From: Acidobacteriota bacterium
Lineage (GTDB): Bacteria > Acidobacteriota > UBA890 > WLXD01
Reading direction: 5' to 3'
Length of the DNA: 64,000 bases
Assembly (NCBI GenBank): GCA_963666055.2
Contig: CAXWPH010000006.1
Coordinates: 96,001-160,000, forward strand
The notes beneath the pieces were generated by a model. It had not been told where the DNA came from. It made no database searches and saw nothing but the letters and a program-made list of their open reading frames with translations. Shown here piece by piece: positions 1 to 12,130 of this stretch. Made by a program: the position numbers and the translations under genes. Numbering within the stretch: position 1 is the first letter of the stretch; the number at the start of each line of letters is the position of its first letter.

Positions 1-965
1 TGCGCCAGCATGGGCGTGGCGACAATGTCGCCGATCGCATAAACACCAGGCACTCCGGTGCGCATGCCGTGGTCGACCATGATGAAACCACGATCGTCGG
101 TTTCAAGCCCGATCGCGTCGAGCCCGAGCCCGTCGGTGGCCGGCAGCCGACCGATCGAGACCAGCACGCGGGCCGCGTCGACGGTCGCCTCGTCGTCCTC
201 GACGCTGTAGCGTACCTGCGCGGAATCGCCCTCGACCTGAACGGCAGTAACCCTTGCACCGAGGCGGATGTCGAGCCCCTGCTCCGCGAGGAGCGTGTGG
301 GCCGTTGCGGCCACCTCGGCATCCATTTCTGGCAGGATGCGATCCATCATCTCCAGCACGACGACCTCGGCACCGAGTCGCGAGTACACGCTCCCGAGCT
401 CCAGCCCGATGTAACCCGCACCTACGATGACCAGGCGGTCGGGCACCATCTCGAGGTCCAATGCGCCGCGCGATGAGATCACCACGTCGTCGTCAAATGG
501 AACCCTGGGCAACTCAGCCTCAACGGACCCGGTAGCGACAATGACGTTGTCCGCAAGCACGGTCACACCAGTCCCGTCCGCCGACTCCACGCCAAGCACG
601 CCCGGCGCCTTGAAGCGCGCCGTCCCCCTCAGTTGCTCGACTCCGTGCCGCTTGAGCAAGCCGCGCACGCCGGTAGTCAGCGCCTTGACCACCTTCGCCT
701 TGTGTCGCTGCATGGCGGCGAAATCAACTCTGGCGCCTTCGACCTGAATCCCGAACACCGACGCCCGGTTGATCTGGCTGAACAGGTGCGTGGCATCGAG
801 CAACGCCTTTGACGGAATGCACCCGACATTGAGGCAGGTGCCGCCGACGAATTCCTTCTCGATCACAGCGACCCGCTGCCCCAGCTGCGCAGCGCGTATT
901 GCTGCCACGTAGCCGCCCGGGCCTGCCCCGATGACGGCGACCTCTACTTGAATGTCGGCGTTCAT
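1..965 (-). CDS. lpdA: Dihydrolipoyl dehydrogenase (E3), 3' part runs off the window
   Basis: Manual translation from ATG at 965: MNADIQVEVAVIGAGPGGYVAAIRAAQLG..., redox motif GGTCLNVGCIPSKAL and NAD motif VGAGYIGLELG; follows the E2 gene. Confidence 0.95.
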   Translation of the reverse strand, partial: MNADIQVEVAVIGAGPGGYVAAIRAAQLGQRVAVIEKEFVGGTCLNVGCIPSKALLDATHLFSQINRASVFGIQVEGARVDFAAMQRHKAKVVKALTTGVRGLLKRHGVEQLRGTARFKAPGVLGVESADGTGVTVLADNVIVATGSVEAELPRVPFDDDVVISSRGALDLEMVPDRLVIVGAGYIGLELGSVYSRLGAEVVVLEMMDRILPEMDAEVAATAHTLLAEQGLDIRLGARVTAVQVEGDSAQVRYSVEDDEATVDAARVLVSIGRLPATDGLGLDAIGLETDDRGFIMVDHGMRTGVPGVYAIGDIVATPMLA

Positions 966-973
966 CGTCAGGC

Positions 974-2452
974 TCAGGGCACGAGCAGCTGCAGCTTGGG
1001 ATCCTCGAGCAACGCCACCAGATCACGTGTGAACTGCGCCGCCGGAGCACCATCGACGACGCGATGGTCGAGGGAAAGGGACAGGTTCACCATGTCGCGA
1101 ATCACGATCTCGTCGCCGCGCACCACCGGGCGCTTGCGAATAGCGGGCACCCCCAGGATCGCCACCTCGGGGTGGTTGATGATCGGCGTGGCGAGGAGTC
1201 CACCGATGCTGCCGGTACTCGTGATCGTAATAGTCCCACCCTGCAGATCATCCGCGGCGCTGCGCCCGGCACGCGCATCCGCGGAAAGACGCGCGATCTC
1301 TTGTGCCAGCGCGAAGATGCTCAACTGGTCGGCGTTCTTCACCACCGGCACCATCAGGCCGCGTTCCGTGTCGGTAGCAATGCCTACGTTGTAGTAGCGC
1401 TTCAGCACGATCTCGCCGCTCTCCTCGTCGAGCGACGAATTGAGGATCGGATGGCGACGGCACGCCTCGATCAACGCCTTGATGAAGAAGGGCAGGTAGG
1501 TAACCCGCAGCCCCTGAGCAGCGGCCATCCCCTTGGCCTCGCGACGCAACGCTACGATCTCGGTCATGTCGCACTCCTCGACGTATGTGAAGTGCGGGAT
1601 ACGACGCTTCGCCTCCACGAGGCGCTCGGCAATCCGTCGCCGAAGCCCGCGCAGCGGAATGCGCTCTTCGAGCGGACCGGCGGAGACCGGCGTCAGCCGA
1701 GGCGCGTTCACGGCGACCGGCGGCACCACATCGACCGGCGGCACCACATCGACCGGCGGCACCACATCGACCGGCGGCACCGCATCGACCGGCGGCACCG
1801 CATCGACCGCCCTGACGGCCTCCGGGGCGGCTCCGGCGATCGCATCGGGCATCGCGGGCGAGTCCGTTGGTGCGGCTCGATCGGCACCACTCAAGAGATC
1901 CGCTTTGGTAACCCGCCCACCCTTGCCGGTCCCTTGTACCCCTTGCAGATCGACGCCGAGCTGCCGCGCAAGGCGGCGGGTGGCCGGAGTCGTAGGCGTC
2001 GGCGTGGCGCCGGACGCGGCCCGGGGAACCTCCCAAGCGACCGTCTCCTCAGCTTCCGAGTCGAGCTCGGCGCGTGCCATTGCCTGCGCCGCCGCCACCG
2101 GGTCGTCGTCGACCTCCTCTGCTGCAATTGATACTACGGGGGCAACATCGGCACGGGGCTGCGAAGCTACGTCGGCCTCCCGAGCGTCGCTCGGCTCGCT
2201 GCTGCCCGCCTCCTCGCCCCTGTCGAGCAGCAAGATCACCGCGCCAACGTCGACGATTTCGCCTTCCTTGACGCGCAGCTCGAGTACGGTGCCCGAAAAT
2301 GGCGCTGGAATCTCCACTGTCGCCTTGTCGGTCATGACCTCGACGAGCGGCGTGTCCTCCTCCACGGCTTGGCCCTCGGTGACGAGCCACTTGATGATCT
2401 CGCCCTCGGCCGTCCCCTCGCCGATCTCCGGTAGCTTGATCTCGCTCGCCAT
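974..2452 (-). CDS. Dihydrolipoamide acyltransferase (E2) of a 2-oxoacid dehydrogenase complex
   Basis: One lipoyl domain (EVMTDKAT), subunit-binding domain (TPATRRLARQLGVDL...GTGKGGRVTKAD), catalytic DHRVVDG. Confidence 0.95.
   Translation of the reverse strand: MASEIKLPEIGEGTAEGEIIKWLVTEGQAVEEDTPLVEVMTDKATVEIPAPFSGTVLELRVKEGEIVDVGAVILLLDRGEEAGSSEPSDAREADVASQPRADVAPVVSIAAEEVDDDPVAAAQAMARAELDSEAEETVAWEVPRAASGATPTPTTPATRRLARQLGVDLQGVQGTGKGGRVTKADLLSGADRAAPTDSPAMPDAIAGAAPEAVRAVDAVPPVDAVPPVDVVPPVDVVPPVDVVPPVAVNAPRLTPVSAGPLEERIPLRGLRRRIAERLVEAKRRIPHFTYVEECDMTEIVALRREAKGMAAAQGLRVTYLPFFIKALIEACRRHPILNSSLDEESGEIVLKRYYNVGIATDTERGLMVPVVKNADQLSIFALAQEIARLSADARAGRSAADDLQGGTITITSTGSIGGLLATPIINHPEVAILGVPAIRKRPVVRGDEIVIRDMVNLSLSLDHRVVDGAPAAQFTRDLVALLEDPKLQLLVP
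1714..1809. repeat. In-frame 18-bp tandem repeat (about 5.3 copies) in the E2 linker
   Basis: Unit cgaccggcggcacc(a/g)cat repeated; encodes PPVD(V/A)V on the minus strand. Confidence 0.95.
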
Positions 2453-2457
2453 GGGCC

Positions 2458-3435
2458 TCAGAAGTTTGCTACTCGCTCGATGGCGGCGACAACCCGTCGC
2501 TTGCTCGGCAAGTAGTCGTCCTCGTGAACGTGGGGAAACGGTACGTCAAAGCCGGCGACACGCTCGACCGGCGCCTCCAGATGCAACAGGGCGCGCTCCG
2601 AGAGCGTCGCCGAGAGCTCGGCGCCAAAGCCACAGTAGGTTGGCGACTCGGCCACGATCACCGCCCGCCCGGTCTTGGCAATCGAGCTCAGAACGGTGGC
2701 GATGTCGAGCGGAAGCAGCGTGCGCAGATCGACAACGTCGGTTTGGATGCCCGACCCGGCGGCGGCGTCGGCCGCCGCCAGGGCCACCGGCACGGTCGAC
2801 CCATATGCGAACACCGAGACATCGGTACCCTGCCGCCGGACTCGAGCCTCGCCAAGCGGCACGATGTGGTCGTCGTCGACGCTGGCTCGGCAATCCTGAT
2901 AGAGGCTCTTGGGCTCCAGGAACACGACCGGGTCATCTCCGCGCAGTGCCGCACGGAGCATGCCGGCGGCGTCCGTCGGATCCGAGGGTGCTGCCACGAC
3001 GAGCCCGGGCGTATGGCAGAAGTACGCTTCTGGACTCTGCGATTGGTACATCCCGCCACCGACGCCACCGCCATAGGGAAGGCGCAAGACGAGCGGACAA
3101 GCGTACTGACCCCCGGAGCGATATCGGATCCGGGCCATCTCCGACACGATGTGCTCGAAGCCGGGCCAGACGAAATCAGCGAACTGAAGCTCGGTTACCG
3201 GGCGGAGCCCGTAAAGCGCCATGCCCACGGCGGTGCCGATCACACCACCCTCCCCGGTAGGAGCGTCGATGACGCGCAGCTCGCCGAATTCGTCGAGCAA
3301 CCCTTCAGTGGTGCCGAACAGGCCACCGAGTGCTCCGACATCCTCACCTAGCAGCACAATCGAGTCGTCGCGGCGCATCTCGGCGCTCAGCGTCCGGTTG
3401 ATCGCTTGCGCCATGTTGAGATCGGGCATCTTCAT
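2458..3435 (-). CDS. 2-oxoacid dehydrogenase E1 beta-like subunit (catalytic His replaced by Gln)
   Basis: GEDVG, ELQFADF, RYRSGG, DPVVFLEPK, VDLRTL motifs; canonical HSQS reads QSQS. Confidence 0.9.
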   Translation of the reverse strand: MKMPDLNMAQAINRTLSAEMRRDDSIVLLGEDVGALGGLFGTTEGLLDEFGELRVIDAPTGEGGVIGTAVGMALYGLRPVTELQFADFVWPGFEHIVSEMARIRYRSGGQYACPLVLRLPYGGGVGGGMYQSQSPEAYFCHTPGLVVAAPSDPTDAAGMLRAALRGDDPVVFLEPKSLYQDCRASVDDDHIVPLGEARVRRQGTDVSVFAYGSTVPVALAAADAAAGSGIQTDVVDLRTLLPLDIATVLSSIAKTGRAVIVAESPTYCGFGAELSATLSERALLHLEAPVERVAGFDVPFPHVHEDDYLPSKRRVVAAIERVANF

Positions 3436-3455
3436 CTCGCCAGGTCGCCGGCCAG

Positions 3456-3479
3456 CTAGTGTCCCGCGCGGGACACTAG
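3456..3479. repeat. 24-bp perfect palindrome bounded by CTAG
   Basis: ctagtgtcccgcgcgggacactag; the right CTAG supplies the E1alpha stop codon. Confidence 0.85.
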
Positions 3480-4453
3480 GATTCGTCCTTCAGACGACGT
3501 AGCTTGCGCGACTGCTCTTGCAGCATCCAGGGCCGCTGCGCCCATACGTCGTCGAACATCGTGTCGGCTGCTGGTGGCCCGGCACTCTCCGCCGCGGCGA
3601 CGGCGGCTGCCACGCGCTCCTCGCAGCGGCGACTGAACTCGTCCTCTCGGCCGGCGTCCCAGACGCCGCGGTGCTCGAGATAGGGGCGCAGTCTGACCGC
3701 CGGCTCCAGCGCCGCCGTGCCGGCCGGCACAACAGCCTCGATCAGCGTCGGGCCGGCCCCAGCGAGCGCCGCTTCCCGGGCGCTGCGTGCCGCCGTGTAC
3801 ACGGCCAACATGTCGGTACCGTCGACGCTCACCGGGTTGACGCCATGCGCCATGGCGAGCGACGCCAGTGAGGTGCTCGGGCAGCGACATACGAAGACCA
3901 CGGGGGCGGCATGTCGCGCGGCAGTTGAGAGGCCGATCTGAAAGGAAGCCTGGTCGGTGGCTGCAGCTCCGAACAGGGCGAGAACGGCGTGCGGGTCATG
4001 TCGCAGCTTCATCGCCAGCGCGGTTCCTGCGGCGTGTTGAATCTGTGTCGCCAGCGGCCCCGAAACCGATACGAAGCGCCCCGCCGGCAGCGTGGCGTGG
4101 CCGGGTAACTGGCGCCCGCGCGCCAGGTCGTCTCGCGACGAAAGCACCTGCGCAAACAGCTGCTCGATGCTTCCGCCGCGCACCAGAAACGCCCCCACAT
4201 CGCGATAGGACGGATATAGCCAGTCACCGTCTTCGAAGGCCCGCGCGGCACCCGCCGATACCGCTGCGCTTGTTCCCGACGGAATCCAAAACCCGATTCG
4301 CCCTGACTGCTGCAGACGCGCGCATCGCTCATCGACGACCCGCGTCACGACCAGTGACTCGTACAGCGCCGTCAGGTCGGCATCCGACAGGTCGCCGACG
4401 TTGCGCTCGATCGCTTCAACGTCGTCCGCGAGGACGGTCAGCAGTTCGCCCAT
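3476..4453 (-). CDS. 2-oxoacid dehydrogenase E1 alpha-like subunit (ThDP-binding motif degenerate)
   Basis: Start MGELLTVL at 4453; LQQSGRIGF, DWLYPSYRD, GRQLPGH, VDGTD, GPTLIEA, MFDDVW recognisable; GDG...NN and YR..GH loops absent. Confidence 0.88.
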   Translation of the reverse strand: MGELLTVLADDVEAIERNVGDLSDADLTALYESLVVTRVVDERCARLQQSGRIGFWIPSGTSAAVSAGAARAFEDGDWLYPSYRDVGAFLVRGGSIEQLFAQVLSSRDDLARGRQLPGHATLPAGRFVSVSGPLATQIQHAAGTALAMKLRHDPHAVLALFGAAATDQASFQIGLSTAARHAAPVVFVCRCPSTSLASLAMAHGVNPVSVDGTDMLAVYTAARSAREAALAGAGPTLIEAVVPAGTAALEPAVRLRPYLEHRGVWDAGREDEFSRRCEERVAAAVAAAESAGPPAADTMFDDVWAQRPWMLQEQSRKLRRLKDES

Positions 4454-5448
4454 GCCCCCTCCCCCGAGGAAGCGCGAATCGCGGACGTCGTGCGGATAGT
4501 TGCCGACGCGGCGACACGGCGCGTCTCGACCAGGTTGGCGACGAAGAACTCGCCGGCCCGATAAGAGCTGCGCACCAGCGGGCCCGACGCTACATAGGCG
4601 AAGCCGAGTCGCTCGCCGAGCTGCCGTAGCTGCGCGAAGCGCTCCGGCGTCACCCACTCAACGACGTCAAGGTGCTTGGACGTGGGCTGCAGGTACTGGC
4701 CGAGGGTCAGGAAATCGACGCCCACGGAGCGGAGCTCCTGCATCGAGCGACGCAGCTGTGCATCGCTTTCGCCCAGGCCGAGCATCAGCGATGACTTGGT
4801 GAACGGCTGCCGAGGATGGCGCTTGGCGCGCTCGAGAATGGCGAGCGACTTGTCGTAACCACACCGGGCGTCACGCACCGTGCGTTGCATCTCCTCAACC
4901 GTCTCGAGGTTGTGGGCGAAAACCTCCAGACCGGTATCGCACAGGGTATCGACAGCCTCGACGTCGCCGTTGAAGTCACCGACCAGTGCTTCGAGGATCA
5001 ACTCCGGTTGACGACGCTTCAACTGCTCGATGCAGGCAGCAACGTGGCCTGCCCCACCGTCGCTGAGATCGTCGCGATCGACCATGGTCAACACGACATA
5101 GCGAAGCTTGAGCAACGCCACCGACTCGGCGAGCTTGCGAGGCTCCTGGCTATCCACGCGGCCACCAGGGTTGCCGGTGGTCACCGCGCAGAAGCGGCAG
5201 CCACGTGTGCAAATCTCCCCGAGCAGCATGAAGGTAGCCGTGCCGCCCGCCCAGCACTCGCCGATGTTCGGGCAGCGTGCCTCCTCGCAAACCGTGAACA
5301 GGCCGCGGTCACGAAGCGTCTTCTTGATGAAGGTGTAACGCTCGCCGCCGGGAGCGCGAACCCTCAGCCAGTCAGGCTTTGCGCGGCGCGTCAGAGGTCC
5401 CGGAGCGCACCCCTCAGGTTCGCCTTGAAGCACGGGAAGGTCCACCAT
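4438..5448 (-). CDS. lipA: Lipoyl synthase
   Basis: KPDWLR, CEEARCPNIGEC, CTRGCRFC, HNLETV, GPLVRSSY motifs. Confidence 0.97.
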   Translation of the reverse strand: MVDLPVLQGEPEGCAPGPLTRRAKPDWLRVRAPGGERYTFIKKTLRDRGLFTVCEEARCPNIGECWAGGTATFMLLGEICTRGCRFCAVTTGNPGGRVDSQEPRKLAESVALLKLRYVVLTMVDRDDLSDGGAGHVAACIEQLKRRQPELILEALVGDFNGDVEAVDTLCDTGLEVFAHNLETVEEMQRTVRDARCGYDKSLAILERAKRHPRQPFTKSSLMLGLGESDAQLRRSMQELRSVGVDFLTLGQYLQPTSKHLDVVEWVTPERFAQLRQLGERLGFAYVASGPLVRSSYRAGEFFVANLVETRRVAASATIRTTSAIRASSGEGAWANC

Positions 5449-8030: not shown

Positions 8031-8851
8031 CCACCCATGCGGACACTTCGACACGGGGCGCTCACCGACTGAGTCTGATCGTCGCGGCCGCCGACGACGG
8101 CGTCATCGGCCGCGACGGGCAGTTGCCCTGGCACCTACCGGACGAGCTGAGGCACTTCAAGGCAATTACCCTGGGGCACGCGATCATCATGGGCCGCGTC
8201 ACCTACGAATCGATCGGCAAGCCGCTGCCCGGCCGACGCAACATCGTGCTCAGCCGCGACCCCGAGTATCGAGCCGAGGGCGCTGAAGTGGTGAAATCTC
8301 TCGACCAGGCCATAACGGCCGCCACCGACGGCGAGCGGCTCTTCGTCATCGGCGGCGCAGCTCTGTTCGCCGAGGCGCTACCGATCGCTGATCGAATCTA
8401 CCTCACCCGCGTTCACGCCGCCGTTGCTGGGGACGTGTCGTTTCCACGCCTCGACGAGCAGCGCTGGCGCCTGGTTTCGGAGGAGCATCACCCGGCGGAC
8501 TCTGAGCACCGTTTCGCGTTCAGCTTCCGCGTGTACGAGCGCATCGATCAGCGGGTCGACGCCTTCAGTCGCGATCTAGCCGCTTGTTCACGCGCCGCGC
8601 CGGCCGCGTGTTGTATTCGGCCTGCCAGGCGCGATGCAGCGGCGAGTCCGGGAAGTGCTCGCCAAGACCGTACGGGTAACCGCTCATGGCGTGGAAGGGC
8701 AGCGGCTCTACACGATCACCATGCAAGGTGTTCGGATCGCCGTCCTTCACCCATCCGTTCAGATACACGAGCCAGTCGCGCCGCCAGCCGTCATGGACTG
8801 GAGGCAGGGTATCGGCGAAACGCAGCACCACCTCGTCGCCGGCCGCGATGA
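8027..8851 (+). CDS. folA: Dihydrofolate reductase; domain ends near 8545 and the ORF reads on for about 100 more codons
   Basis: GTG overlapping the thyA stop; [49 protein letters not shown]. Confidence 0.9.
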
Positions 8852-11800
8852 TGACGTAGCGATCGTCCGCTTGCCGCACTAGCTCGCCCACCGCACCGTA
8901 GCGCGTGTAACTCCCCCGATGCGGATCCCAGTTCGAGCTCGAGCTGACATTCTCGTAGTCGAAGGTCTCATAGCCATCCACGGTCCGGCGCAGCGCCGAG
9001 AACCCGCGCCAACGGATCTCCGCACTTGCCGGCTCCAACACGTGGATGCTCACCTCCGGGATCGTCCCGGTCGCGGCATCCCGCATCACCAGGTCACCGC
9101 CGCGAGGCACCTCCCACTCGCCTTTCCAGTTCCCCGTAGGCAGCAAGCCGCGTGGATGACGGCCGCCGACGGTGTAGAACACCGCGTCCCAGTAGAGTCG
9201 CATCGTGGTGGTCACCCGAATGCGCGGATCCTGGGGATCGATGATCTCTGTTACATCAACGCTAATGGTGGAGTTCTTGCCATTGGGCAGCCCGATGTCA
9301 GCGATTGCCGTGCGCCAACCCCCACGACCATCAGGAACCTCGAGCGCAACCGGCGCGAACGCCACGCGCGGGTCCTCGTCGACAACCAAGTTGACGCTGG
9401 CGGTAGCCCAGTACACCCACCCGGTGAGATACAAGCGCACCTGTCCACCCGCGGCGGCGTCCGGAAGCGATAGATCGAGAGCGTGGGGCGTGGCGAGCCC
9501 CTCATACAGAGCCGGCTCGAAGGGCGCCGGCCAAACGCCGTCGATCGAGGCTAGCGCAGCGCTCCAATCGCGACCGTGCTGATCAACGGCGGCCACCGGG
9601 CGGGGCTCATCGACGACAAACAGCCGCAGCTCGGGATGCGGCGGCGCAACGAACTTCTCGTCCGGAATCACCAGCGTCCCTTCGGGATGGTCCACGGCCA
9701 GCAGCCGTACCGCGTCGAGGTACCCGGCTTCGCGCAGCTCCTCGCTAAGTCGCAACTCCAGCACGCCATCCCGAGGCTGGAGCGCCTCGCCCGGCACCGG
9801 TACATACTCGTCGAAATCAGCCGGGTGGATTACACCGGTGGCAAGTGGCATTCCTAGCGGAGCTACACCGAGCACCTCGTTGATGAAGCGCCAAGTCTTT
9901 CCGTCCCAGGTGTACAGCAGCGGACACGACCCCTCGAGCCGCTCCACTTCGGTAACCGGACCGAGCGTCGCGCGCGCCGCTACGGCGGTCTCGTTCTGCA
10001 GGATGCCGTTCGGCCATGTGATCCTCACCACCTCGACCTCGTCGAGATCTCCGAGGCCAAAGTGCACCGCGTCGCGCCGCATGCGGCGACGCTGGTACAG
10101 GCCTCCGCTCTTGACCTCGACCGACGCACCGATGCCGCGGACGTTGTTCTTGATGCCCCGTAGCCGCACACTCAGCCAGGCCCCCAGCGGCGCCGGCTGT
10201 TCGTACCAGACGGCCGTGCTGCCGGTGCTCACGAGGATATCGACGCTGCCGTCGCCGTTGCCGTCGAACGCATCGACCAGCTCACCGCCGCCGCTGTCAA
10301 GCACCGGCCCGGCAACGAATCGCCACTCGCCAATGTTCAGCAAGGTGTGCACCCCGTCGGCGGTCTCGACGATCAGATCGAGCCAGCCGTCGTTGTCGAG
10401 ATCACCAGCAACGATGCGCCGTACGGCGGCGGACATGTCGATATCACGATCGTCGAAGGTGCCGTCGCCGTCGTTGCGGAGCCCGCGTAGGCCGTTGGCG
10501 CCCCCGAGCACCAGATCGACGGCGCCGTCGTTGTCGAAGTCCTCGGCAACCGCGTCGACCGTGGCGGCGTCCCCGCCGGCGCCCACGGCGTCAGCGATCT
10601 CCTCGAAGCGCCCGCCTCGTGAGTTGGTGTACAAGGTCGCGGGTGCACGATCGCCGACGACGTAGAGATCGATATCGTTGTCGTCGTCGAAGTCGGCCCA
10701 CGTCACACCGATGGCTGCGGGCTGTGCCCCTAGCCCGGCGGCGAGGGTGGCGTCGGCAAACTCGTCGCCCCCATGGTTGAGCACCAGTCGCAGACCTGGC
10801 CCACTACCGGCGGCAGCGATCAGCAAGTCGAGATCGCCGTCGTGGTCGGCATCGACCCAGGTCACCTCGGTCGCATCGGGCGTGACCGGCAGCCCTGCCG
10901 ACTCGACGAGCTCGAATCGTGCCGTCAGTGGGTCGCTCCCCAGGTTGCGGAACAATTGACCGGCGGACGCCGCGGCGACGTACACATCAAGACTCCCATT
11001 CCGATCGGCGTCGCCGAGCGCCACCGGGCCCGCTACGGCATCAAGGACAACGGCGGTACTGCCGCCGGATGCGCCTTCCGTCGATCCGACCTGCAGCAGC
11101 TCGACGCGCCCGGCTCCAAGGTCGGCGGCAAGCAGCCGCCCCGCGAGGGCAACCGGCAGCGCCACTTCGCGTCGCGTGAACACCAGCCGTTCCGCCGAAT
11201 CCGTCGACGGCCGTGCGTAGTTAACGCGCGGCACCTCCACGCGCTTGTAATGACCTACCTCCAACGCCACCGGGGCCCGCTGCGCCTGAGAAAGCTGGCG
11301 CTGGTACATCTGGTAGCGCTCGAGGAGCGGCGTCGCCGCCTGGCGATCACCACCACGCAGCAACAGGAAGGCGGAACGGTACGTCGCTGAGACGAAATGC
11401 TGCAGTCCGATATCGAAGCCCATCGCCATGACCGCGCCGTAGTGGCGTTGCGCCGACGCCAAGTCTTGTAGTGTTTCGTAACTCGCCCCGAGGTTATAGC
11501 GGATGGCCGGGTCGGCCGGATCGAGCTCGGCGGCGAGAGCGAGCGCCGCCTGTGCCTGGGCTGTCTGGCCCCGCTTGGCGTGCAACAAGCCGCGCAGGTA
11601 GGCGGCACCGGCATGTTGCGGATCGAGTTGCGCAGCAGTATCGAGAGCAGCGAGCACCGCGTCGTCGTCTGCTGGCGCGGCGGCGGTCTCGTACAACGCC
11701 AACGCCAAATTGATCCAATCGCGCGCCGTGGCTCCGGACTGCTGCACGACGCGGTGGAACGCCGCCGCGGCGGCCACGTGCTGCTTCTCCTCGTACAGGG

Positions 11801-11957
11801 CCTGCCCGCGGTTTCGTAGCGACTGCTGGGCGGCATCCTGCGGCACTGCGAGGCCAACAAACGGACCGCAAACGAGGGCTAGAGCCGCTACCAGGATGGG
11901 CAGCGCCGAGCGGCGTCGGCCACTTCGCGAGCCGAGCTGCTGACCCTCAGGCGACAC
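8565..11957 (-). CDS. Large secreted TPR + FG-GAP/VCBS repeat + ASPIC/UnbV protein with additional C-terminal domain
   Basis: GTG at 11957 after GGAGG; signal peptide; N-terminal TPR-like helices; repeated DxDxDGxxD motifs; RGIGASVEV...HFGLG...ITWPNG (UnbV); GSCPLLYTWDG domain follows. Confidence 0.8.
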   Translation of the reverse strand: MSPEGQQLGSRSGRRRSALPILVAALALVCGPFVGLAVPQDAAQQSLRNRGQALYEEKQHVAAAAAFHRVVQQSGATARDWINLALALYETAAAPADDDAVLAALDTAAQLDPQHAGAAYLRGLLHAKRGQTAQAQAALALAAELDPADPAIRYNLGASYETLQDLASAQRHYGAVMAMGFDIGLQHFVSATYRSAFLLLRGGDRQAATPLLERYQMYQRQLSQAQRAPVALEVGHYKRVEVPRVNYARPSTDSAERLVFTRREVALPVALAGRLLAADLGAGRVELLQVGSTEGASGGSTAVVLDAVAGPVALGDADRNGSLDVYVAAASAGQLFRNLGSDPLTARFELVESAGLPVTPDATEVTWVDADHDGDLDLLIAAAGSGPGLRLVLNHGGDEFADATLAAGLGAQPAAIGVTWADFDDDNDIDLYVVGDRAPATLYTNSRGGRFEEIADAVGAGGDAATVDAVAEDFDNDGAVDLVLGGANGLRGLRNDGDGTFDDRDIDMSAAVRRIVAGDLDNDGWLDLIVETADGVHTLLNIGEWRFVAGPVLDSGGGELVDAFDGNGDGSVDILVSTGSTAVWYEQPAPLGAWLSVRLRGIKNNVRGIGASVEVKSGGLYQRRRMRRDAVHFGLGDLDEVEVVRITWPNGILQNETAVAARATLGPVTEVERLEGSCPLLYTWDGKTWRFINEVLGVAPLGMPLATGVIHPADFDEYVPVPGEALQPRDGVLELRLSEELREAGYLDAVRLLAVDHPEGTLVIPDEKFVAPPHPELRLFVVDEPRPVAAVDQHGRDWSAALASIDGVWPAPFEPALYEGLATPHALDLSLPDAAAGGQVRLYLTGWVYWATASVNLVVDEDPRVAFAPVALEVPDGRGGWRTAIADIGLPNGKNSTISVDVTEIIDPQDPRIRVTTTMRLYWDAVFYTVGGRHPRGLLPTGNWKGEWEVPRGGDLVMRDAATGTIPEVSIHVLEPASAEIRWRGFSALRRTVDGYETFDYENVSSSSNWDPHRGSYTRYGAVGELVRQADDRYVIIAAGDEVVLRFADTLPPVHDGWRRDWLVYLNGWVKDGDPNTLHGDRVEPLPFHAMSGYPYGLGEHFPDSPLHRAWQAEYNTRPARRVNKRLDRD

Positions 11958-12130
11958 CGTTTTCCTCCATCGACCGACGTGTGGGGACGCTTCTACACAG
12001 TCTAGTGCGTCGCCGCCCAACGGGCCCGCCGGCCCTGGCCAGCCCAGGTCCGCCACTTGATACCGACGGGGCACTCCTTTCCCGGGGTCGTCGGCGTTGT
12101 AGATTAGGTACGTTCAAATGGGGGGAAGCC

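Follow-up and report, generated by a model that had tools for sequence, protein, structure and literature searches.

Our analysis of a 64,000-nucleotide stretch of DNA from a member of the Acidobacteriota (the window) indicates that an E1α/E1β pair encoded in a lipoate-linked operon is very probably a selected, non-catalytic E1, that is, a pseudoenzyme. The pair has the marks of one: it is homologous to an active enzyme, it lacks catalytic residues, and it is held under purifying selection. 2-Oxoacid dehydrogenase complexes are textbook three-enzyme machines, and a conserved dead E1, if true, would give bacteria a new layer of regulation or organisation.

Organization of the operon

The genes are arranged in the order lipA, E1α, E1β, E2, E3, and these genes and the features described within them lie on the minus strand. 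The first gene, lipA (4438..5448), encodes a lipoyl synthase that scored 378 bits against TIGR00510 (NCBIfam cut-off 310); its 3′ end overlaps the start of the E1α gene, and lipA precedes the α gene in relatives too. E1α (3476..4453) is a degenerate, BCKDH-like chain of 325 residues that matches PF00676 and scored 211 bits against TIGR03181 (cut-off 411). E1β (2458..3435), also 325 residues long, matches PF02779 and PF02780 and combines a relaxed cofactor face with a conserved C-terminal domain. E2 (974..2452) has lipoyl, subunit-binding, and catalytic domains, and E3, dihydrolipoamide dehydrogenase (1..965), runs past the window edge; the whole E3 gene, present in locus L005, scored 555 bits against TIGR01350 (cut-off 409). 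The motifs DKA and DHRVVDG in E2 and CLNVGC in E3 are kept and LipA exceeds its family cut-off, in agreement with the original prediction that these three proteins are intact. Contigs from two runs in two studies are identical to window positions 2400-4500, but may themselves be the source of this DNA; assembly error is unlikely because relatives bear the same deletions, which is a stronger check than the matching contigs.

In L005 (7234-11645), E3 is followed by recD2 and a metallo-β-lactamase-fold gene, an order common to genomes G015, G016, and G023, and beyond these lies a glutaredoxin-thioredoxin reductase fusion on the opposite strand. Elsewhere in the window, positions 8565-12074 (minus strand) encode a TPR/FG-GAP/ASPIC-UnbV protein of 1169 residues, and the 49 frames scanned at 13350-63087 are ordinary housekeeping genes, including those for class II ribonucleotide reductase, rpoD, selB, nucleoside salvage, gap-pgk-tpi, and tsaD.

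E1α lacks the cofactor motif and both active-site loops

We aligned E1α to T. thermophilus 1UM9 and human BCKDH. The GDG thiamine-diphosphate/Mg motif is lost at 3941..3973, where FGAAATDQASF replaces the reference FGDGATSEGDW; an in-frame deletion at 3866..3889 removes the closing Asn-Asn and about 13 inner-loop residues; and at a second in-frame deletion site (3701..3733) some 20 residues, including the His271 equivalent, give way to VVPAGTAALEP. The GDG..NN motif that binds Mg and diphosphate, with the equivalents of D173 and N202, is thus absent from E1α. The analysis confirmed the motif losses in both chains and the full-length frames from which the original prediction started. According to a study of G. 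stearothermophilus PDH, the Mg is held by D173 and N202, and the two loops serve to stabilise the cofactor and to engage the lipoyl domain (PMC2663715). Given those data, the α changes, more than the β change described below, predict that the enzyme is dead.

The fold itself appears to be retained, as had been proposed: the predicted E1α structure has a pLDDT of 93.4 and TM scores of 0.87-0.89 to BCKDH E1α, from an alignment of 45 rows of which about half were intact homologues. Pfam recognises both the α and the β fold, the latter by sequence only. Across the dead α chains of the order, a core of 42 sites is conserved. F55 and R84 are kept in 19/19 and H119 in 79% of them, residues that make pocket and phosphate contacts in BCKDH structures; S132G and G118 are common to 17/19, and Y83 and M116 are relaxed. 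Apart from order-wide residues and the two glycines, these chains have fixed nothing new of catalytic type, and the replacement loops vary freely from genus to genus.

E1β has lost His128 and relaxed its cofactor face

At 3043..3045, a CAA codon (Gln131) stands in place of His128-β, so that E1β reads YQSQS. Every His128 loss that we saw was to Gln (in the source genome G000, ten members of its family, and G019), and these changes fall in two branches of the β tree, one comprising the whole family and the other G019. E1β retains the equivalents of Glu59 (E62, invariant in 26 rows) and Phe85 (F88), and shares a C-terminal LEAPV and a terminal NF with the G. stearothermophilus β chain (3DUF chain B). 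The study of the G. stearothermophilus enzyme states that His128-β is conserved in all known E1s and that the His128Gln enzyme keeps DCPIP activity, with complex activity below 5% (PMC2663715). The earlier claim that the lost residues are needed for catalysis calls for one correction: β keeps the Glu59 and Phe85 equivalents, and His128Gln by itself spares decarboxylation (PMC2663715).

Among 49 intact operons, 110 β sites were at least 95% invariant. In 18 dead-pair β chains without a second α gene (α2), 31 of these 110 sites were relaxed, 29/80 in the cofactor domain and 2/30 in the C-terminal domain (Fisher p 0.002, with kin that are not independent). Four β chains encoded beside an intact second α keep 27 of the same 31 sites. 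In E1 enzymes, the C-terminal domain of β is the part that binds E2. Separately, one β gene (L054 5289-6494, in G020) carries a single in-frame TAG, which reflects early decay or a sequence error; G020 belongs to the same genus as G015 and G016, which have lost the α/β pair.

The pair is under purifying selection

An orthologous α was present in 22/26 genomes of the order and was degenerate in 21 of these 22: in G000, in 10/10 members of its family, and in 10/11 of the other family, where G014 has an intact α. G001 and G019 are truncated where their contigs stop, and two unpublished genomes (G047 and G071) count only in denominators, including that of the 351-genome phylum count below. Nei-Gojobori comparison of G000 with four congeners gave dN/dS values of 0.08-0.16 for α and 0.10-0.12 for β; neighbouring genes and the fused E1 described below gave 0.08-0.24 (E2, E3, lipA, thyA, an ABC ATPase, fused E1), and four further pairs in the order gave 0.13-0.24 for α. 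Dead α genes of Myxococcota were more relaxed (0.32-0.54). Between genera, α diverged faster than its neighbours (dN 0.39-0.48 versus 0.20-0.33), so it is less tightly constrained than an active enzyme would be. The same deletions recur in relatives at 50-94% identity, and frames are open in all of them except for the G020 β gene. The dead α chains of the order form one clade (support 96), which stands beside the intact α chains of G014 and P0019 (support 99). The low dN/dS values and the relatives with the same losses bear out the proposal of a selected pseudoenzyme rather than a decaying gene.

An intact, unlinked fused E1 is the likely working enzyme

A search for a canonical E1 elsewhere in G000 was suggested at the outset, and it located an intact fused E1α-β of 733 residues (C15:2030817-2033015, L002) that adjoins pntAB and has no E2 gene within 18 kb. 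The GDG motif, terminal Asn, loop His, Glu, and β His were invariant in 20 aligned orthologues. Fused E1 was present in 24/26 genomes of the order and was not found in G014 (intact α, 90% complete) or G022 (83% complete). The α profile matched only the degenerate α and the fused E1 in G000, and this search detected no intact split α there. G000 also carries an aceE-aceF-lpd operon, which encodes a separate E2 and E3, together with two ferredoxin-oxidoreductase matches; SucA was not found in this genome, and AceE was above cut-off in 8/26 genomes of the order. In G011, G012, and G013 (95-96% complete), a single E2 gene was detected and AceE and SucA were not, so the operon E2 is most likely to be served by the fused E1. 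Long but weak matches (26-33%) to this enzyme turn up in several genomes, these three among them, and could be other E1s. Thus, judged from gene content, the unlinked fused E1 is likely to be the working E1 for the operon E2 and E3, and its BCKDH-like matches suggest that its substrate is probably a branched-chain keto acid.

LEAPV and the terminal Phe, which the split β keeps, are missing from the C-terminal part of the fused E1. The predicted model of the fused E1 was poor (pLDDT 62, pTM 0.60), and no solved structure is close to it; the protein has a W.PRRYYEG tail conserved at the C terminus and carries an insert in its β part. A split Labilithrix pair resembles it (28% and 36%) and is probably of the esg type.

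Loss began in α

Operons of the form α1-β-E2-α2(-E3), often behind lipA and with both α genes intact, occur in G014, G030, G048, other Acidobacteriota, and two Planctomycetota. In G018, G021, and G045, α1 is dead and both β and α2 are intact, which rules out simultaneous loss in the two chains. In G015 and G016 (2.5 Mb, 86-88% complete), the pair has been cleanly deleted: a single contig carries lipA-E2-E3-recD2, and the fused E1 is kept. With direction read from intact sisters and outgroups on quick trees, loss was stepwise: α degenerated first, in the presence of an intact α2, and the cofactor face of β later, once α2 was gone. The coordinated loss in both subunits that was initially envisaged is at odds with this order of events.

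A linker motif in E2 accompanies the dead pair

In the E2 linker element at 2024..2113, WEVP comes after a helix (AR..ARAE) and precedes the PATRR of the subunit-binding domain by 12 residues. The helix, between the lipoyl and subunit-binding domains, was found in all 23 aligned E2s of the order. A WE[AVI] sequence follows it in 18/18 E2s that accompany a dead α and no α2, with W140 and E141 invariant; it is absent from G014, G018, and G021, and also from G015 and G016, although their congener G020 has both motif and pair. WE[AVI] was also absent from E2s of five Acidobacteriota outside the order and from the Myxococcota linkers compared, some of them truncated. A pattern search of metagenomes gave 58 matches, 45 of them by chance and 13 in E2s of this type, some of which probably repeat genomes already counted; α was in view at seven of the 13 loci and was dead in 7/7. 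On the tree, this pattern corresponds to one gain and one loss, and it is a lead for direct contact with the dead pair, not proof.

Two other features of these E2 genes deserve mention. An 18-bp tandem repeat in the linker (window 1714-1809; 5.3 copies, 98% matches) is absent from the 91%-identical E2 of G002, indicating a recent expansion, and the E2 gene of G005 (L042) has a tandem duplication at the start of the catalytic domain.

Dead α genes recur outside the order

With a profile built from 21 dead α chains, 841 cluster representatives were retrieved at E ≤ 1e-30. An alignment-based rule sorted the 147 new ones listed into 63 dead, 20 partial, and 64 intact, so many annotated 2-oxoisovalerate or pyruvate dehydrogenase α chains are probably inactive (63 + 20 of those listed). 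A tree of 72 hand-picked α chains, computed without the motif columns, required 12 changes, a number to be read with caution because some branches are long. A scan covering 9/64 parts of a genome collection returned mostly intact α chains.

Fused E1 was present in 15/351 Acidobacteriota (14 in this order plus G027, which has a dead α), in G045 and G363, and in 46/251 Myxococcota. Of these 46, 34 have no split β of the operon type and 12 do. An α1 was in view in 11 of the 12; both loops were missing in 11/11 and G[DE]G in 10/11, the β His was kept in 11/11, and in 9/11 the dead α stands beside an intact β and an intact second α. All 28 α1 genes from Myxococcota without fused E1 were intact, but had been chosen by likeness to an α. 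In a 77-row β tree, 30 operons were dead with fused E1, 45 intact without it, none intact with it, and two degenerate without it, namely G022 and Labilithrix luteola (loop-less only). This link yields three independent (starred) pairs, which is not significant (sign test p 0.5), and two Planctomycetota with intact α chains carry E1_dh frames of 780-803 residues that could be counter-examples if of the fused type. Degenerate α genes recur in other Acidobacteriota and in Myxococcota, nearly always with fused E1, but have few independent origins; the association is strong, yet its cases are not independent in the statistical sense.

We also searched 80 of the 147 remaining Myxococcota and found eight with β and a dead α in none; six of these β genes have no α within 1.5 kb upstream, and two have an intact α of another type. 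Seven Myxococcota loci (L367-L372 and L350) have β-E2 with no α detected just upstream, and in three others (L359, L360, and L361, from G447, G562, and G399) the intact second α is found outside the E2 operon, within a few kb of the gene for fused E1. In the cultured strain Labilithrix luteola DSM 27648, the α at L128 6908-8050 has GDG and NN and lacks the His outer loop, and two intact α chains elsewhere in the genome score higher; a cultured strain thus bears the loop-less stage.

Possible roles of the dead pair

We hold, with a confidence just short of even, that the dead pair is a non-essential regulator that docks on E2 and competes for its binding sites, a reading drawn from the comparisons above. 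Fused E1 would have taken over the α1 reaction, probably branched-chain keto-acid oxidation, and so freed the α1 catalytic residues; the second α would then have left the operon, and β would have lost its cofactor face. The dead α2β2 would bind the E2 subunit-binding domain, with WE[AVI] helping, and by filling E2 sites would set the load of active E1 and E3 on the core, so that flux is damped or tuned. Displacement by fused E1 explains why α1 could die, but not why the pair persists without an active split α. That docking regulates rather than merely stabilises is a predicted role. A scaffold or regulator on E2, one of the functions first suggested, thus remains the best reading.

A less probable but still appreciable alternative is that the pair joins the fused E1 as a facultative adaptor or half of a hybrid, tethering it to E2 and raising its activity. 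The presence of fused E1 in 30/32 operons with degenerate α and 0/45 intact ones, the conserved α core, and the absence from fused E1 of the C-terminal features kept by β are consistent with such a partnership, but displacement alone accounts for the co-occurrence. Because G015 and G016 keep fused E1, E2, E3, and lipA without the pair, an obligate adaptor is ruled out, and the 34/46 fused-E1 Myxococcota without a split β of this type likewise indicate that any such role is not obligate.

It is rather unlikely that the emptied pocket instead senses a ligand, binding a keto acid, acyl-CoA, or nucleotide to gate the complex, although retention of F55, R84, and mostly H119, the shared S132G and G118, and the exclusive replacement of His128 by Gln in two branches would fit a re-used pocket. 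The conserved pocket residues may be structural, and Y83 and M116 are relaxed.

Slightly less probable again is a purely structural part that stabilises or assembles the E2 core or shields the linker, without regulation, or, in two-α operons, a dead α that stabilises the shared β or competes for it. The kept fold and C-terminal domain and the dispensability of the pair in small genomes fit this idea, as does the dead α beside intact β and α2 in most of the Myxococcota in view and in G018, G021, and G045; most E2 cores, however, need no such part, and G000 has no intact split α to serve.

We consider it very improbable that the pair carries out a new reaction independent of thiamine diphosphate, or that it feeds a redox relay made up of E2 and E3. 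A laboratory His128Gln mutant keeps the first half-reaction (PMC2663715), β keeps E62, and the reductase fusion lies a few genes downstream; against this, no new catalytic-type residue is fixed, the replacement loops vary, and E2 and E3 persist where the pair is gone. The idea, raised initially, of a relay diverted from 2-oxoacid oxidation finds no support, given the intact fused E1 and the persistence of lipA alongside E2 and E3 after deletion of the pair. Simple decay or assembly error, for which the missing catalytic residues and the deletion of the pair in two genomes might speak, is extremely unlikely given open frames and shared deletions, and simple decay is ruled out by dN/dS far below 1.

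Comparison with known systems

In a search of titles and the beginnings of abstracts, whose coverage excluded most subscription journals, no account of a dead E1 that is conserved came to light. We tentatively suggest, as a possibility rather than an expectation, that pseudo-E1 constitutes a fifth type of subunit in the 2-oxoacid dehydrogenase complexes of bacteria, a recurrent and undescribed type that arises repeatedly on displacement by fused E1 and, in this order, forms a fully dead α2β2 with its own E2 docking motif and a re-used ligand pocket, a protein-level switch in place of the eukaryotic kinase. If true, the genomes described here would preserve stages on the way from enzyme to pseudoenzyme: loop loss, cofactor-motif loss, partner decay, and deletion.

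The closest sequence and fold matches are the heterotetrameric BCKDH E1 enzymes (T. thermophilus 1UM9, human 1DTW, P. putida 1QS0), and the operon with E2, E3, and lipA is alike; in contrast to these enzymes, the dead pair lacks GDG..NN, the inner loop, the His outer loop, and the β His, and scores far below the family cut-offs. Two mutants of G. stearothermophilus PDH E1 (PMC2663715) have natural counterparts: β carries the same His-to-Gln change as His128Gln-β, and α lacks the whole loop that is altered at one position in His271Ala-α. Those mutants keep the Mg/diphosphate motif, whereas the dead pair has lost it and its state is fixed by selection. The BCKDH of M. xanthus, with E1 encoded by MXAN4564/4565 and E2 by MXAN4217, at distant locus numbers, provides a precedent for E1 and E2 genes that lie apart, as inferred here for fused E1 and the unlinked E2; the available sections of that paper make no mention of a dead E1 (PMC4048283). 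On these comparisons, the dead pair is built like an E1 while failing the catalytic criteria for one, so classifying it among active E1 enzymes would be wrong. The E3-binding protein (protein X) of eukaryotic PDH is a largely non-catalytic paralogue of a core subunit and organises its complex, as the dead pair may do. Protein X is E2-derived and eukaryotic, whereas pseudo-E1 is derived from E1.
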